Assembly: GCA_048938105.1 (NCBI GenBank)
Contig: JBHLMN010000009.1
Location: 96,001 to 160,000, forward strand
Direction of reading: 5' to 3'
DNA from: Promethearchaeota archaeon
GTDB lineage: Archaea > Asgardarchaeota > Heimdallarchaeia > Hodarchaeales > Hodarchaeaceae
DNA length: 64,000 nt
Position 1 is the first letter of the stretch, and each line of letters begins with the position of its first letter. Both the position numbers and the translations under genes were made by a program. The notes beneath the pieces were generated by a model. That model was not told where the DNA came from. It did not search any database and worked only from the letters and a program-made list of their open reading frames with translations. Of the stretch, positions 44,561 to 52,032 are shown in pieces.

Positions 44561-45175
44561 GTGAATATAAATCGCGTCAGGATAGGTCGAACATTGGTCA
44601 ACATTGGTATTTTAGGAACAATGAATTGCGGAAAAACATCAGTCTTCGTGTCTTTTATGAATTCTTTAGCTAGCTCGGATGAAAAAATCATTGCTGGCGC
44701 CCCAGGTGGCCCAGAAATGTATACAACGCAGACAGTCGATTTTATTAGATTTACGTCAAAAGGATTCATCCATGTTCTCTATGGCACTGGTGGGCATCAA
44801 ACTCCTATCACTGATTATTATCGTGTTTATGTCTTAAGAAATGCTAATCGATTTCTTTGTATGTTTGATCTAAGTGAGGATCTTGAAGAACAATTTGAAT
44901 TTTATCGCGGATTTGATATTCCAACCAAATCAATTGTTGTTTATCTGAATAAATATGATCTAGCTCCTGAAAATTTGAAAAATTATCAAGAAAAAGTAAG
45001 TTCTTTCTTTATTAATGAGAAGAAAAAACTCATCAAAGATATTTTCCCAACAGTTGCATTAAGAACTGCTGATGAAGAACATGAGGAATATAAACAGAAT
45101 TGTTTGAAAGGGATATTAAGTCTATGTGATTTTGATCGGGATGCTTCTGCTTTTGATGTCTGGGAGGGGCAATAA
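44561..45175 (+). CDS. Divergent small GTPase (MglA/CvnD-like)
   Basis: G1 GTMNCGKTS, G2 TTQTVDF, G3 variant YGTGGH, G4 NKYD, G5 TVA. Confidence 0.8.
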   Translation: MNINRVRIGRTLVNIGILGTMNCGKTSVFVSFMNSLASSDEKIIAGAPGGPEMYTTQTVDFIRFTSKGFIHVLYGTGGHQTPITDYYRVYVLRNANRFLCMFDLSEDLEEQFEFYRGFDIPTKSIVVYLNKYDLAPENLKNYQEKVSSFFINEKKKLIKDIFPTVALRTADEEHEEYKQNCLKGILSLCDFDRDASAFDVWEGQ

Positions 45176-46288: not shown

Positions 46289-47683
46289 GTGATTGTCGTC
46301 TTAGATGAACAAGATTCACCATTTCATCTTCCTCTAGTTGATTTTCACACTCACATCGGTAGAGTTAAGATTGAGACTACAAAAGGGGCCTCCCAAAGAA
46401 TAAATCGTCCCCAAGATATCATCAATCTTTATGAAAAATTGCAGTATGAAATACATAGACGTATTTCTCTGAACCAATCAGATTATTATGTTACTCTACC
46501 AAAAGCAGAAGAACTTTCAAATCCTTTACTCCCTGCTGTACAGAAGTTATTAGAATTGAATAGTACTAAAAGTCGAGGATGGATCGTTGATCATATCGTT
46601 TGCTTCCCGTTTAATGATATTTTTCATACAAAGACGTCTCCAAAATTTATTAAAAGTAATCAATATGTACGTCATCAAACACAATCCTTTGATTTTTCAT
46701 TTCGGTTTATTCCATTTTGTAGGGTAGATGTGACTGATGAAGGAGCTGCTGAAGAGGTAAAGAACTCTATTGGTTTAGGAATGAGAGGATTGAAACTCCA
46801 CCCTATGTCACAAGGTTGGATCGAGAGCATTGTGTCATCCGCCTGCAAAGAGGTTTTACAAACAGCGGGAGAGCTTTCAATACCAATCATTTTTGATGTT
46901 CCTAATAAGGGAGTAGCTGTTGACATTACTACAATAGCAGAAGAAGCACGACAAGAGGTTGATTTTCCAATCAATGTCGTCTTAGGTCATTCTGCTTTTG
47001 ACTATAATTCGAAAGAAATCTTTGAATGTTTAACAAAAGATGAAATGTTTGCTGAAACATCAGGAATGAGGGGAAAAGATGTTGAGATTTATTTCAACAA
47101 TGTTGTAAATGTAAAGGGATGGGAAAATAAATTACTGTTTGGAACAGATTCAAATTACTTTGGTGTCTTACAGGCAGCTGATTTCATCACTTTTCTTTTA
47201 TCACAGAAATTTAAAGAGCTAGTTGAAAATACTAGCTCTAATATTGAACCATTAGATGCAGCTGGGAGAATACTTGGAGGTAATGCTCTTAAAATTATTC
47301 CCCCATCTTGGTTCAATAATTCAATTCCACTGAAAAAACATCGTTCGAGCTCTAAAGGATATTCAACAGATTTACTAATTTTACGATCAAATCTAAAAAA
47401 GATTCTAACAAAACAGAACAACACGGGAACAATTGATCTTGCTAAACCGCAGAGAAAAGAGATTTCGATTCAAGTTCTAACTATTGGGCAATTAGACAAA
47501 AAATTCTCTTATATTCTTGAAACTAAGGACAATTATCAAAATATCACACTCAGTCCAATTTCTAATCTTGATAGAATTAATGATTTACCCATAAAATCGC
47601 TAAGCCCTGTTGAATTGATTTCTAAATCGCGGAAAAGGAAACCACGCTTAAAAGATCAAACATTTCTTGAATTATTGGGGTGA
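46289..47683 (+). CDS. Amidohydrolase_2-family metallohydrolase with C-terminal extension
   Basis: DFHTH, GLKLHP, LGH, LLFGTDS, ILGGNA. Confidence 0.85.
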   Translation: MIVVLDEQDSPFHLPLVDFHTHIGRVKIETTKGASQRINRPQDIINLYEKLQYEIHRRISLNQSDYYVTLPKAEELSNPLLPAVQKLLELNSTKSRGWIVDHIVCFPFNDIFHTKTSPKFIKSNQYVRHQTQSFDFSFRFIPFCRVDVTDEGAAEEVKNSIGLGMRGLKLHPMSQGWIESIVSSACKEVLQTAGELSIPIIFDVPNKGVAVDITTIAEEARQEVDFPINVVLGHSAFDYNSKEIFECLTKDEMFAETSGMRGKDVEIYFNNVVNVKGWENKLLFGTDSNYFGVLQAADFITFLLSQKFKELVENTSSNIEPLDAAGRILGGNALKIIPPSWFNNSIPLKKHRSSSKGYSTDLLILRSNLKKILTKQNNTGTIDLAKPQRKEISIQVLTIGQLDKKFSYILETKDNYQNITLSPISNLDRINDLPIKSLSPVELISKSRKRKPRLKDQTFLELLG

Positions 47684-50646
47684 ATCGCTTGACTAATAAA
47701 GAGTACACACTTAAAACGGAATTATATTTCACCCACGGAATTGAAATAGAGAACCATTTAGTTTCACGAAAAACAGGGGAAGTTATTGTAGGAGATGAGC
47801 TTCTCAACGCGTGGGAGAAAATGTTTTCTGGAGCAGCAGAATTCTTACAGAAATTGAGAAAAGATAAGCACGTTCCTAAAGAAATCTTAAAGAAAATCGA
47901 AAAAGTAGAAGTTAAAGAAGAGGTTAAGAGAGAAAGACGGTTAAAATTCGTCTTTGTCAACTATAAGCTAGGAAAAAAGACTATCCGAGTCAATGTATTT
48001 GGGCCAGATCCCAATATTGGTCAAATCACTTGGTTACTCGAACTGGTGACTCCTCCTTGTGAGTATTTAGAGGAATTGGATTTCTGGATCGATACATTAT
48101 TTGCAGCAGGCCTTCAAGGCCTACCCTCTGATGTAGCTTTACTTCCGATTGGATTAAATCCAACAGAAAAAAGGGTAAGGAGTGGATTGACATGTGGAGA
48201 ACATCATCATATTGGGATGCCAAAACAAATACGTATTCCTATATATAATATGCTTAGAAATTATGTACCTCATTTAATCGCTCTTAGCACAACATCCCCA
48301 TTTTTAGATAAAAAACCAAGTGGTAAGGTTTTGATTCGAAAAACTGATGGAAAAAAACAGATTATAGGAAGATGTGTCCATTCGTACCGATTACTGAAAA
48401 ATAGTGGTCAAATGGGACCAAATATACCTAGTTATCTCCCCGTATTAGATAACAAGTCTACTAGAATGGATTTCGCTAAATCAGTTAGAAAGGCTCCTCC
48501 AGATGACCGAATGGTTGATTTGTATCCTTTTACTGATTACTCTACGATAGAAATTCGTTTTTTTGACGCTCAACCTTGGCCCGAGATCCGCTTGGCCATC
48601 GTACTCTTGATTCAAGCTCTTGCACAGAAAACAAAGAATTTAATTGAGAATAATGAAGAAGTCCCTAAAGTAGCATCCCGATGCCTTTACGAAAACCGAA
48701 GAAAATCTGTGCAATTTGGTCTACTTGCCCAATTTACCACTGACGATAATTTGGCTGATAACTTTTCCAAATTTTACAATTATGATATAACTACTGGTAA
48801 AAAAGCTTCAAAATTGATGCATTCCATAAAATCTTTGTTAGTTTATGTTCAGCATGAGCTCGAGGGATTTGGATCGGAGTTGGTGAATTATATTCTAATA
48901 CCTATCCTTGGTTCTAATGATTATGATCCCCCTCTCACTGTAGCAGAATATTTACTTTCTTTATACAAAATTGCTGATGATATTTCCTTCTTACCAGATT
49001 TATATTATTCTAAAGAAAATAGCTATCCTTTAGTTGTTGCCAGTGATTATACTTCTCTTCAACAGGTGGAAATAACGGATAAAATTGAAGAGACAGAAGC
49101 ATCCCTTCAACAATCATTACGTAAGGATTTAGCTAAACGGAAAATTTCAATCCCAAAAGTAGAGAAAAAACCAGTAAAACCTAAGGGAAAACCTCCTAAG
49201 AAACCACCTAAGAAGAAAGTTCCTCGGAAAAGACCAAAGAAAAAGGAGATTGAGAAACCTGTTATTACACCCACAATAAAGGTCGAAAAGCCACCAACTT
49301 TAGCAGCAATAAAAACTAGAAAACATGTTCCTAAGCCAATTCCACCTCCTACTGAAGAACCAATTGAAACAACAGAAGGGGAAATTAAAATATCTGCTTT
49401 TGAAGATAGTGAGGACCTCGAAGTATTCTCACCAACGATAGAAGTTGAAGCTAAATATCAGAAAATTGAATCTAGAATAGCAAATGTCATGCGAACTCGA
49501 CGTAAAGAAATAGAAGTAAAAAGGCGAGAATTTTTCTTAGATCATCTTAAAAAAGAACGTGTGGCTTTTAAACCCTCTCCAAAAAAGGTTGCCCCTATCT
49601 TTCCAGCCTTAGTATCAGGACCAGAAATATTTGGATACATTGAAATCAGTTTTCGTGATGTTAAAAGAGCCATGTATAAATTTCGAAATAATCCCATCAC
49701 ATTAATATTCAAAGCCAAAGAAAAAGGAAAACCAGTGAAGTCAAAGATAAACACCTCAATAGATATAGCCAGTCTTGAAGAAAGAGGAATGACTAGAATT
49801 CCATGCTCAATAAACCTGGGTGAATTATATGGAGATATAACGGTGAATATAGAGGCAGTTACTGCAACAAACGAAAGCCTATTACCAAAAAAGTTCTCAT
49901 TTAATCTAATCCGCAAGGATGAAATAGCAATAAATCCAAAAGAATTCTATGTTACTGGGAATTATGGCCTTGTAGAGTGTATCTTTCAAGCGGTCAATGA
50001 ATCAAAAGATTCAGAAAAAGGAGAACATGAAGTATTCCTCGTGACCCAGGCTTTAACAGATCCAGTCTTAATATCTTATACAAAATTTAATTTGAAACCT
50101 AAAGAAAATCTAGAACTAGCTCGGAGTATCGATTTATTAATAAATTATCAACACACACCCTTTTACATAGTATCTCAAATCACAATCGGACGATTTAAGA
50201 AGAATAGGTCATTTAAGACAATTGGACCAATAAAACCACTGAAAGAAATATGTGTAGATTGGAATTTCACGGTTGACCCAACAAAAAGAACTAATCTCTG
50301 GGAAGGAGTAGAACCAAAAAAGCAGTATGAAGTGAACTTTGTATTCCATTTTATTAAATCAATGCCGTATGCAACTATAACAATTCATGTGAATACTCTC
50401 CCTGGGGGGCAAACAAAACGATTAGTAAATTTTCGAATCAAAAGAGACATTGATGCAGGGGATGAATTCATCATACCGAATATTAAATTTAAAACACCAA
50501 AAGATTGTGGTTATCTCTATTTTGATGTTGAAATACGCAATGAAATGGGATTAATTCCACTGGATCTCATTTCTGGTCCAATTGGAGTCCAAAGTAAAGG
50601 TGAACAGGCAGCTACATATGAAGAGAGACTTGATTTGACGTTATAG
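47680..50646 (+). CDS. Glutamate-cysteine ligase 2 (carboxylate-amine ligase) domain + Pro/Lys linker + C-terminal beta-rich domains
   Basis: HGIEIE, LELVTPP, TCGEHHHIG, LIALSTTSPF, SYR, TIEIRFFD; GTGA overlap with the amidohydrolase. Confidence 0.8.
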   Translation: MNRLTNKEYTLKTELYFTHGIEIENHLVSRKTGEVIVGDELLNAWEKMFSGAAEFLQKLRKDKHVPKEILKKIEKVEVKEEVKRERRLKFVFVNYKLGKKTIRVNVFGPDPNIGQITWLLELVTPPCEYLEELDFWIDTLFAAGLQGLPSDVALLPIGLNPTEKRVRSGLTCGEHHHIGMPKQIRIPIYNMLRNYVPHLIALSTTSPFLDKKPSGKVLIRKTDGKKQIIGRCVHSYRLLKNSGQMGPNIPSYLPVLDNKSTRMDFAKSVRKAPPDDRMVDLYPFTDYSTIEIRFFDAQPWPEIRLAIVLLIQALAQKTKNLIENNEEVPKVASRCLYENRRKSVQFGLLAQFTTDDNLADNFSKFYNYDITTGKKASKLMHSIKSLLVYVQHELEGFGSELVNYILIPILGSNDYDPPLTVAEYLLSLYKIADDISFLPDLYYSKENSYPLVVASDYTSLQQVEITDKIEETEASLQQSLRKDLAKRKISIPKVEKKPVKPKGKPPKKPPKKKVPRKRPKKKEIEKPVITPTIKVEKPPTLAAIKTRKHVPKPIPPPTEEPIETTEGEIKISAFEDSEDLEVFSPTIEVEAKYQKIESRIANVMRTRRKEIEVKRREFFLDHLKKERVAFKPSPKKVAPIFPALVSGPEIFGYIEISFRDVKRAMYKFRNNPITLIFKAKEKGKPVKSKINTSIDIASLEERGMTRIPCSINLGELYGDITVNIEAVTATNESLLPKKFSFNLIRKDEIAINPKEFYVTGNYGLVECIFQAVNESKDSEKGEHEVFLVTQALTDPVLISYTKFNLKPKENLELARSIDLLINYQHTPFYIVSQITIGRFKKNRSFKTIGPIKPLKEICVDWNFTVDPTKRTNLWEGVEPKKQYEVNFVFHFIKSMPYATITIHVNTLPGGQTKRLVNFRIKRDIDAGDEFIIPNIKFKTPKDCGYLYFDVEIRNEMGLIPLDLISGPIGVQSKGEQAATYEERLDLTL
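49165..49350 (+). repeat. Pro/Lys-rich low-complexity coding linker
   Basis: KKPVKPKGKPPKKPPKKKVPRKRPKKK...VPKPIPPP. Confidence 0.7.
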
Positions 50647-50748: not shown

Positions 50749-52032
50749 ATGGTTAAACTTAATGTTGTAAATGTTGGGAAGATCGAAGGTCGTGCATATT
50801 TACATCCGTCTGACATTAGTAGCGTTGGTGTTGAAGAATTTGATTTTGTTAAGATTTCAACAGAATGGGAGGATTGGGGGGCAGTTCAAATCCTATCATC
50901 TGATGAAGTTAGTAAGGGAACAATTGCTGTTGATGATAGTGTGTTAAATTCAGCTAATATTTCGGACGGAGACGTATGTGAAGTAGAACCTGCAAAAATC
51001 GCTGCAGGTATTAAATCAATTAAACTTGGGATTGAACCATTAGCAGGCCAAGAAGTCGAGGAAGCAATCTTATGGATTGCTACTGAATTTGAAGAATTAT
51101 CAAATATTCTTCGAAATCGGCCTGTATTTTCAGGATTACAAATTGCTTGGGAAGACTGTCCTATAGGTAGCATAACAGTCAGATTTATGGGCTCGGAACC
51201 AGCCATCCAAGAAAATGAGATTGGTATTGTCGATCCTACTGGTCGTGAAGTTGAAATAAACATCATTCCATTTACTGAAATGAGCTTTAATGCCGTTTTA
51301 GTACTTGATGTTTCAGGTAGTATGCAAAAAAAGGATATGAAGGTAAAGAATATTAGTGGGGCTTTGGAAGGACTTAAAAAAGGTTTAGAGGAGACCGGCG
51401 AACTAAATACATTTATTGAAAGGTTTGTAGATGGAAAAAAGGTGTCTCGCGTTGATGCCGCGGCCATGGCAATTATGTTATTCATGAGCCTGAAGATAGC
51501 AAAAGGGTGGGGTGAACAAGTCCAGCTTATAACCTTCTCTGGGGATGTGGAAAAATTCACTCTGGGTGATTCACAAGTGATTTCTTGTGTTGGTGAAACC
51601 AAAAAAGCTGGAATTGAAAGCATTATCGGTCACGTCGTCCAAAAAACCGAAGAAAGTTCAGGGCTTACATTTCTCAGTGGAGCTCTTGATGAAGCATATA
51701 GCAGTATTGAGAATTTTGATGAAAATCCCACCATTAACAAGCGAAATCCAACGATGATCATTGTACTTACCGACGGTAACCCAAATAAAGGCAATGGCCT
51801 AGGAGTAAATCCAATTCCCGTGGTTAGAAAGAAGGTTGAGGAAAATCCTGAAGCTGTTCTGTATGCAATCGGACTAGGAGAAGCTGATAGGCTGATGCTT
51901 CGTCGTGTTGGAGAAATTGGCCGAGGGGGATCATTGATGGCAGATGATCTCGAGACACTCATTGATTTTTACGATTCATTAGCTCAGAATTTCCAAATGG
52001 TAGTTAAAATGAAGAAACAGGAAGTAGAGTAA
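50749..52032 (+). CDS. CDC48/VAT N-domain-like (double-psi barrel) fused to VWA domain
   Basis: GRAYLHPSDISSVGVEEFDFVKI...GTIAVDDSVLNSANISDGDVCEVEPA...NRPV; MIDAS DVSGS...T...TDG. Confidence 0.78.
   Translation: MVKLNVVNVGKIEGRAYLHPSDISSVGVEEFDFVKISTEWEDWGAVQILSSDEVSKGTIAVDDSVLNSANISDGDVCEVEPAKIAAGIKSIKLGIEPLAGQEVEEAILWIATEFEELSNILRNRPVFSGLQIAWEDCPIGSITVRFMGSEPAIQENEIGIVDPTGREVEINIIPFTEMSFNAVLVLDVSGSMQKKDMKVKNISGALEGLKKGLEETGELNTFIERFVDGKKVSRVDAAAMAIMLFMSLKIAKGWGEQVQLITFSGDVEKFTLGDSQVISCVGETKKAGIESIIGHVVQKTEESSGLTFLSGALDEAYSSIENFDENPTINKRNPTMIIVLTDGNPNKGNGLGVNPIPVVRKKVEENPEAVLYAIGLGEADRLMLRRVGEIGRGGSLMADDLETLIDFYDSLAQNFQMVVKMKKQEVE

Follow-up and report, generated by a model that had tools for sequence, protein, structure and literature searches.

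A tethered, multidomain GCS2-superfamily ligase in a three-gene module co-inherited across Asgard archaea

A three-gene locus built around a 988-residue ligase

We analysed a 64,000-nucleotide stretch of the genome of a Promethearchaeota archaeon of the Hodarchaeales (GenBank assembly GCA_048938105.1, contig JBHLMN010000009.1, positions 96,001 to 160,000 of the forward strand; hereafter the window, contig C53 of an assembly of 5.85 Mb that is 99% complete). Within it, a 988-residue protein that combines a carboxylate-amine ligase domain with a disordered tether and a beta-sandwich tail is encoded between the genes for an amidohydrolase and for a protein with a Cdc48 N-domain and a VWA domain (Cdc48N-VWA). 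The GCS2 superfamily to which the ligase belongs is known; what is new is the clade, the architecture and the conserved three-gene module. Homologues of the ligase carry the public names 'glutamate-cysteine ligase family protein' or 'hypothetical', and literature searches on the ligase family and the three-gene module found no published description. The genes and features of the locus are listed below by position in the window, with the basis for each in brackets.

46289..47683, + strand: Amidohydro_2-like metal hydrolase (Pfam; invariant residues; adjacency; phyletic pattern)
47680..50646, + strand: whole ligase-tether-tail gene, 988 residues (open reading frame, translation, database homologues)
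47716..49074, + strand: GCS2/YbdK-fold carboxylate-amine ligase domain, residues ~13-465 (Pfam, Foldseek, PDB profile search, AlphaFold2)
47737..47751, + strand: GhExE motif G20-I-E22-I-E24, strand-1 metal/ATP site (conservation; motif from PMC2588565)
48202..48210, + strand: H175-H-H177, strand-4 [HD]x[NH] motif (H175 in 142/144 and H177 in 144/144 family sequences)
48517..48528, + strand: D280-L-Y282-P283, counterpart of D-I-R-P in YbdK (alignments to YbdK)
48550..48567, + strand: E291-x-R293-x-x-D296, strand-6 Ex[RK]xxD motif (invariant in all 141-142 family sequences covering it)
49177..49383, + strand: Lys/Pro-rich tether, predicted disordered, residues 500-568 (predicted local distance difference test (pLDDT) <50; composition)
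49384..49470, + strand: acidic motif ISAFE..EDLEV..P.IE.E.KY, residues 569-597, within the disordered stretch (alignment; hidden Markov model (HMM))
49474..49554, + strand: long predicted helix, residues 599-625 (DSSP on both models)
49579..49923, + strand: predicted beta-sandwich D1, residues 634-748, with a conserved TATNE loop (models; alignment)
49924..50247, + strand: predicted beta-sandwich D2, residues 749-856, Ig/CARDB/macroglobulin-like (models; VIA-align)
50248..50607, + strand: predicted beta-sandwich D3, residues 857-976, with conserved GDE and FKTPK motifs (models; alignment)
50749..52032, + strand: Cdc48N-VWA protein (Pfam; adjacency; fusion; phyletic pattern)

The ligase gene runs through 988 codons without interruption in a genome of ~35% GC, as a preliminary description of this DNA, made from its letters and reading frames, had reported. 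A database record of 985 residues is 100% identical to it, full-length homologues in other assemblies share 40-88% identity, and 70+ homologues are on record, labelled as Hodarchaeales, Heimdallarchaeota or other Asgard proteins from metagenome-assembled genomes (MAGs). Two start codons are candidates, GTG at 47680 and TTG at 47689 (residue 4). Residue 4 is the first residue of the database copy and of most homologues, and the true start may be TTG 47689 instead of GTG 47680.

The stop codon of the hydrolase (TGA, 47681-47683) overlaps GTG 47680 by 4 nucleotides, which points to translational coupling, and the same overlap is found in most genus-level loci (e.g. L020, L022, L023 and L027-L033); gaps between genes of the triad are short (100-170 nucleotides). 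In the hydrolase, DxHxH, KLHP, D203, H234 and D287 are invariant, and the nearest solved enzymes are decarboxylases and hydrolases that match at E 0.04 or weaker, a very remote relationship. The downstream protein consists of two protein-binding modules, a Cdc48 N-domain and a VWA domain with the DxSxS metal-site motif. Cdc48/p97 and Ufd1 recognise their clients with a Cdc48 N-domain of this type.

The catalytic domain and its relatives

AlphaFold2, run on the 988-residue ligase with a 34-sequence alignment (mean pLDDT 80; predicted template modelling score (pTM) 0.53), modelled residues 14-465 with confidence (pLDDT mostly >85). The top Foldseek matches of this model are the YbdK structures 1r8g and 1tt4 (E 4e-11, template modelling score 0.72), a profile of the family found YbdK in the PDB at E 9e-13, and Pfam GCS2 (PF04107) scores 24.8 bits, above its cut-off of 21, in an alignment that covers residues 166-215 only.

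In the account of Iyer et al. (2008; PMC2588565), which places PafA and Dop in the same superfamily, carboxylate-amine/ammonia ligases have a GhExE motif on strand 1, acidic residues on strands 2 and 3 that contact Mg and ATP, [HD]x[NH] on strand 4, Ex[RK]xxD on strand 6, and two active-site arginines, one in a long loop and the other on strand 5. We scored these features in 145 relatives of the ligase, counting over the sequences that cover each site. G20, E22 and E24 are kept in 133-134 of 134 sequences, the acidic residues D110 and E121 in 141/142 and 142/142, and the loop arginine R237 in 144/144; strand 6 reads E291-I-R293-F-F-D296 in the ligase. D110 and E121 would lie on strands 2 and 3, judging by strand order in the model. 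The motifs that the preliminary description had picked out (GIEIE at residues 20-24, ELVTPP at 121-126, CGEHHH at 172-177, SYR at 235-237, DLYP at 280-283 and EIR at 291-293) are invariant or nearly so in an alignment of 34 full-length homologues, and are kept among the 145 wider relatives. Because the superfamily motifs persist in all or nearly all covering sequences (133-144), the domain is very likely active. ATP-dependent carboxylate activation followed by amide-bond formation, which these residues would carry out, is the best-supported part of our interpretation.

The strand-5 arginine is the one feature that differs. Position 282, where YbdK has this residue, is Tyr or Phe in 133/142 family sequences, and R277, five residues earlier and kept in 139/143, may substitute for it. 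The preliminary description had put this as replacement of the 'usual' DIRP by DLYP. That holds for YbdK itself. The shorter GCS2-like relatives that we retrieved have Thr (17) more often than Arg (10) at this position; the change is therefore real, at a position that is variable outside YbdK proper.

The domain is only distantly related to the curated families. The NCBIfam YbdK and GshA models that it matched (TIGR02050 and NF010039-NF010045) gave 31-64 bits against cut-offs of 176-437, none of which was reached; for TIGR02050 the score was 61.2 against 176.4, where genuine YbdK-family proteins score 220-312 bits, and for NF010039 it was 63.8 against 371. Neither Pfam nor the profile search of the PDB, read out to E 10, gave a match to PafA or Dop. 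In a maximum-likelihood tree of 72 domains (IQ-TREE quick search), with the family delimited by profile score and not by taxonomy, the multidomain ligases form one clade (SH-like approximate likelihood ratio test 100) apart from relatives of ~350 residues and from the YbdK outgroup. The domain thus falls outside the YbdK/GshA group, in line with the preliminary description, and on sequence grounds it is a distinct clade of the GCS2/YbdK superfamily confined almost entirely to Asgard archaea. When one genome from each prokaryotic species was scanned, 373 ligase loci were found; nearly all of the best 80 are labelled Asgard (Hod/Heimdall, Jord, Frey, Thor, Prometh/Loki), and a few of these 80 are labelled Bathyarchaeia, Thermoproteota or uncultured archaeon.

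An exhaustive representative search for the ligase domain yielded 156 relatives of diverse architecture. The ~430-residue domain stands alone in proteins of about 470-570 residues, is N-terminal in proteins of 950-1,400 residues, follows N-terminal extensions of ~250 residues elsewhere, and lies near the C-terminus of giants of 2,232-3,944 residues (P0122, P0218, P0136, P0134, P0132, P0125, P0149 and P0110). In P0112 it is joined to a C-terminal double zinc ribbon and in P0116 to a hydrophobic C-terminal segment that resembles a membrane anchor. Pfam recognised only the GCS2 stretch in the giants P0122, P0110, P0125 and P0136 and in the relatives P0107, P0083, P0072 and P0060. The source annotation of P0110 is SbcCD-like.

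Tether, tail and linkage of the partner genes

Beyond the catalytic domain, the preliminary description had read a long basic Pro/Lys linker, a helical segment and strand-rich, Ig-like domains. The latter parts agree with our models: a helix at residues 599-625 is followed by three sandwiches over residues 634-976, for which Foldseek and VIA-align return beta-sandwiches of the Ig/FN3/macroglobulin/CARDB type. As for the linker, residues 487-597 are predicted to be disordered (pLDDT <50), and within them the tether (500-568) is 30% Lys plus Arg and 25% Pro with a net charge of +13, but its basic charge is not kept in all homologues. Across the 34 homologues a tether of 58-107 residues with 20-47% Lys plus Arg recurs, so that length and lysine content persist and sequence does not. 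Directly after it stands the acidic motif (569-597; net charge -5), which is strongly conserved despite its low pLDDT. An HMM of this motif matches most full-length homologues at E 1e-22 to 1e-35 and the most divergent, P0082, at 2e-10. Since it is strongly conserved although predicted to be disordered, it behaves like a short docking motif.

Folded alone, the tail reached pLDDT 86 and pTM 0.79, and the three sandwiches are therefore predicted to pack in a defined way. In the alignment of 34 homologues, T728 of D1 is invariant and A726, T730 and N731 are nearly so, while D928, K938, P940 and K941 of D3 are invariant; the polar loop motifs TATNE, GDE and FKTPK suggest specific binding surfaces on the tail. 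VIA-align superposes D2 on many Ig-like domains (Z 8-10.3 over ~100 residues, root-mean-square deviation (rmsd) 2.7-3.3), and D2 with D3 on the two C-terminal barrels of transglutaminases (Z 9.1-9.5 over ~200 residues). Homology to complement C3/C5 or alpha-2-macroglobulin was considered and rejected, as the rmsd is 14-20 and the likeness is that of tandem sandwiches. An ESM Atlas search with the tail gave sub-threshold leads only (0.86-0.88, CARDB-like), and hhalign did not detect a relationship among D1, D2 and D3.

The tail is not a unique fusion, a possibility that the preliminary description had raised against its own reading. HMMs of the helix and of D1-D3 match every full-length genus-level homologue (E 1e-10 to 1e-59), and the sister family f4, with proteins of ~1090 residues, has weak co-linear matches to D1 and D3 (~1e-4). 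Among more distant long forms there are two isolated single-domain matches (E 2e-3 and 1e-2).

The partner genes keep close company with the ligase well beyond the window. The hydrolase is immediately upstream both in genus g1 and in f4, a distant family (38-40% identity), directly follows short-form ligases, and in both Jord/Frey paralogue sets adjoins the VWA gene, facing the ligase. The Cdc48N-VWA gene adjoins the ligase in the Hod and Jord/Frey clades and lies 6-8 kb away in f4. In the Thor-like family f11 (G171:C11, G116:C8, G208:C123 and others) the VWA and hydrolase genes adjoin each other, and this pair lies at a constant distance of 10-12 kb from the ligase (~1150 residues) on the same contig, with lineage-specific genes between. 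The window's genome holds two ligase and two hydrolase paralogues, each pair adjacent. The ligase domain is also found fused to Cdc48N-VWA: in P0126, a complete Cdc48N-VWA protein (residues 3-409, which align to 9-418 of the window's partner) precedes a ligase domain (444-892). P0126 and P0219, metagenome proteins from the Joint Genome Institute of 962-968 residues, carry this VWA-ligase fusion without the beta-sandwich tail; a metagenome scan for the P0126 fusion found no locus.

The second ligase/hydrolase pair of the window's genome is at locus L019 (G000:C60:1-4510), which encodes in order a short ligase paralogue (about 467-491 residues, 31-34% identity), a 513-residue amidohydrolase paralogue and a 406-residue protein with weak matches to coiled-coil families. 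Its contig is 4.5 kb long in an assembly with 7% contamination, so that its membership in the window's genome is uncertain.

Presence and absence of three profiles were scored in one sample of 300 Asgard genomes, 89 of them of high quality, from 70 genera.

Ligase: 170/300 genomes, 62/89 high-quality genomes, 34/70 genera
Amidohydrolase: 170/300 genomes, 62/89 high-quality genomes, 34/70 genera
Cdc48N-VWA: 171/300 genomes, 62/89 high-quality genomes, 34/70 genera

Ten families (f1, f4, f10, f11, f12, f14, f23, f27, f28 and f29) have all three, and in the remaining 20 not one of the profiles had a hit (e.g. 0/29, 0/19 and 0/11 genomes), where absence from incomplete MAGs is no proof of absence. 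Within carrying families the module is near-universal, and a genome usually has one ligase copy or two. A distribution that matches across many families, together with parallel copy numbers, is hard to explain unless the three genes form one functional unit.

Other neighbours are less constant. A HerA-like ATPase, a small GTPase and a winged helix-turn-helix protein flank the triad in the window, and are linked to it only in genus g1. No thiol-biosynthesis or metabolite pathway gene was recognised among the neighbours scanned, no Pup-like or proteasome gene in the neighbourhoods examined, and PADLOC gave no match to any of the three proteins of the triad. The neighbours in the Thor clade (an oligopeptide ABC transporter, DUF92, SPFH/Band_7, PfkB, and proteins of 223 and 145 residues) were set aside as mostly lineage-specific synteny: none occurs in the window, and the SPFH protein alone recurs elsewhere, at two Jord loci. 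An AMP-binding ligase near some f4 and Frey/Jord loci was likewise discarded as a partner, being inconsistent in occurrence and absent from the window.

The window's small GTPase (44561-45175, + strand), two genes upstream, contains a conserved SAFDVW[E/D/N]GQ motif followed by 0-2 residues in nine of nine genus-level copies. It ends in Gln, recalling the GGQ end of Pup. A Pup-like terminal-Gln tag on this neighbour was rejected as a general explanation, since the Ras-like GTPases of f4 have unrelated, variable acidic ends. Small GTPases of different subfamilies are found a few kb or less from the module in three separate clades (genus g1, f4 and some Frey/Jord; L014:15957-17081(-), L045:5017-5565(-), L047:2120-2674(-) and window:44561-45175), a proximity that may be due to chance, Asgard genomes being rich in GTPases. 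The C-termini of the VWA proteins (50749-52032 and its homologues in L020-L077) are short tails, acidic in most clades, and their last residues differ between close relatives (e.g. ...KKQEVE, ...KKEPEE, ...AEEEEF, ...RLEV/RLEA/RLEVA); these may be no more than ragged ends, or else C-terminal modification may take place there.

Readings of the module and its known counterparts

We infer ligase activity, a macromolecular substrate and roles for both partners as follows. The ligase, the coupled upstream amidohydrolase and the downstream Cdc48N-VWA protein would act as an obligatory three-protein module, in which the beta-sandwich tail and the Cdc48N-VWA protein bind a target, protein or peptide, and hold it in position, the VWA metal site perhaps gripping the acidic motif. 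The ligase would then phosphorylate a carboxylate with ATP and couple it to an amine, giving an amide or isopeptide bond, and the amidohydrolase would either strip this modification or ready the carboxylate by deamidation. Such a writer, eraser and adaptor would work like pupylation by PafA and Dop, or like cycles of C-terminal amino-acid ligation, from different parts. That an ATP-dependent ligase is recruited to a protein or peptide target in this way, with the hydrolase reversing or priming the modification, is the reading that we favour, at slightly under an even chance. The further step, that the three proteins constitute an undescribed ATP-dependent system of covalent protein or peptide modification based on a GCS2 enzyme and not on ubiquitin-like E1/E2/E3 proteins, we propose tentatively and consider doubtful. 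A protein or peptide substrate is favoured because of the tethered Ig-like tail, the docking-type acidic motif, the VWA/Cdc48N partner, the fusion protein, the giant relatives and the lack of metabolic pathway genes among the neighbours scanned. The earlier suggestion of macromolecular targeting thus finds indirect support in the co-inherited partners, the fusion, the relatives of 2,200-3,900 residues, the form with an anchor-like C-terminal segment and the lack of a recognised thiol gene among the neighbours scanned, and it stays a suggestion.

Several points weigh against a macromolecular substrate. The analysis turned up no substrate, tag gene or target, and beside the triad there was no small conserved open reading frame among those listed (at least 80-90 residues; shorter ones were unscreened). 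The Amidohydro_2 enzymes characterised so far have small-molecule substrates, which in the solved members are small aromatic acids, and YbdK, the nearest solved relative of the ligase, is itself a small-molecule ligase. The placement of the tail domains relative to the catalytic domain is undefined in the full-length model (pTM 0.53), the sandwich matches (Z about 8-10) are generic and carry no functional information, and the tails in other clades are not recognisably the same, barring the isolated weak single-domain matches. The net charge of the tether ranges from -2 to +31 among homologues and is close to zero in one subgroup. Related genomes, moreover, are not independent, so that there are fewer independent events than the co-occurrence counts suggest.

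One rival is a small-molecule pair, in which the product of the ligase would be a gamma-glutamyl-type amide or a metabolite in the form of a short peptide (e.g. a thiol precursor, an osmolyte or a cofactor intermediate) and the amidohydrolase would degrade or recycle it, with the tail and the VWA protein serving only assembly, localisation or regulation. The nature of YbdK, the Amidohydro_2 type of the hydrolase and the failure to find a tag or target gene all speak for it. Set against these are the position of the ligase outside all curated YbdK/GshA families with the YbdK strand-5 Arg replaced, a protein-docking Cdc48N-VWA partner that is strictly co-inherited with the ligase and also found fused to it, the giant multidomain relatives, and the scanned neighbourhoods, in which no pathway gene was recognised; we regard the small-molecule pair as possible without thinking it probable. 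The narrower idea that the enzyme is a bona fide gamma-glutamylcysteine ligase of GshA/EgtA type, acting in thiol biosynthesis with incidental extra domains, draws on the public names of its homologues and on the weak Pfam GCS2 match. Scores far below every family cut-off, a separate clade and scanned neighbours without a recognisable thiol-pathway gene make it highly improbable.

A special case of the macromolecular reading is ligation directed at the module itself, in the manner of RimK or tubulin tyrosine ligase, where the modified site would be the enzyme's own Lys-rich tether or else the acidic C-terminal tail of a neighbour, either the VWA protein or the GTPase. There is a Lys-rich flexible segment beside the catalytic domain, the VWA C-termini are acidic in most clades and variable in sequence, and the GTPase of genus g1 ends in a conserved motif of the SAFDVW[E/D/N]GQ type; the termini are not conserved in detail, however, the terminal-Gln idea fails in f4, and the GTPase belongs to the neighbourhood in genus g1 only, so that we consider this version unlikely. 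Less likely still is a role in conflict or defence, or as an inactive scaffold. The HerA-like ATPase next door in genus g1 has defence-type matches and the distribution across families is patchy, but PADLOC is blank for the triad, HerA is linked in one genus only, and the module is near-universal in the families that carry it, at one or two ligase copies per genome as a rule; conservation of all catalytic residues argues against a pseudoenzyme.

Irrespective of these readings, gain and loss of the three genes of the module go hand in hand across about ten Asgard families. No known prokaryotes are closer relatives of eukaryotes than Asgard archaea, and how they regulate proteins bears on how eukaryotic systems came about. 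Were the three proteins indeed an undescribed modification system, the module would be the functional equivalent, in these archaea, of pupylation; if proteins are amide-tagged and untagged by it, it would add a third chemistry to the two by which prokaryotes tag proteins, the ubiquitin-like and Pup systems, and a large family with members of 2,000-3,900 residues would gain a function. If the substrate is instead a small molecule, the module would still define an unknown and widespread Asgard metabolite pathway.

Among known systems, YbdK (E. coli 1R8G, Salmonella 1TT4; TIGR02050, PF04107) shares with the ligase its fold, the GhExE and HxH motifs, the loop Arg and ExRxxD. The ligase differs from it in sequence (~18% identity), in the size of the domain (~430 residues against ~370), in having Tyr or Phe for the strand-5 Arg, and in possessing a tether and tail of ~520 residues as well as hydrolase and VWA partners. 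The gamma-glutamylcysteine ligase of Brassica juncea (2GWC), of the plant/proteobacterial type, has the same fold (Foldseek E 3e-8) but superposes poorly (rmsd 13.8), and the ligase lacks a family-level sequence match to it and differs from it in gene context and architecture. Transglutaminases (TG2, TG3, factor XIII and protein 4.2) consist of a catalytic core and two C-terminal beta-barrels, the latter being those on which D2 and D3 superpose, and like the ligase they are amide-bond enzymes with Ig-like accessory domains; their catalytic domain and chemistry are unrelated, however, and the likeness of the sandwiches is generic (rmsd 5.8-7.6) and implies no homology. PafA, a ligase, and Dop, a depupylase/deamidase, belong to the same superfamily and likewise pair a ligase with a reversing or priming hydrolase around a macromolecular amide bond, as proposed here for the Asgard module. 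In that module, by contrast, there is no sequence match to PafA or Dop, and the hydrolase is a TIM-barrel-type amidohydrolase, not a paralogue of the ligase.

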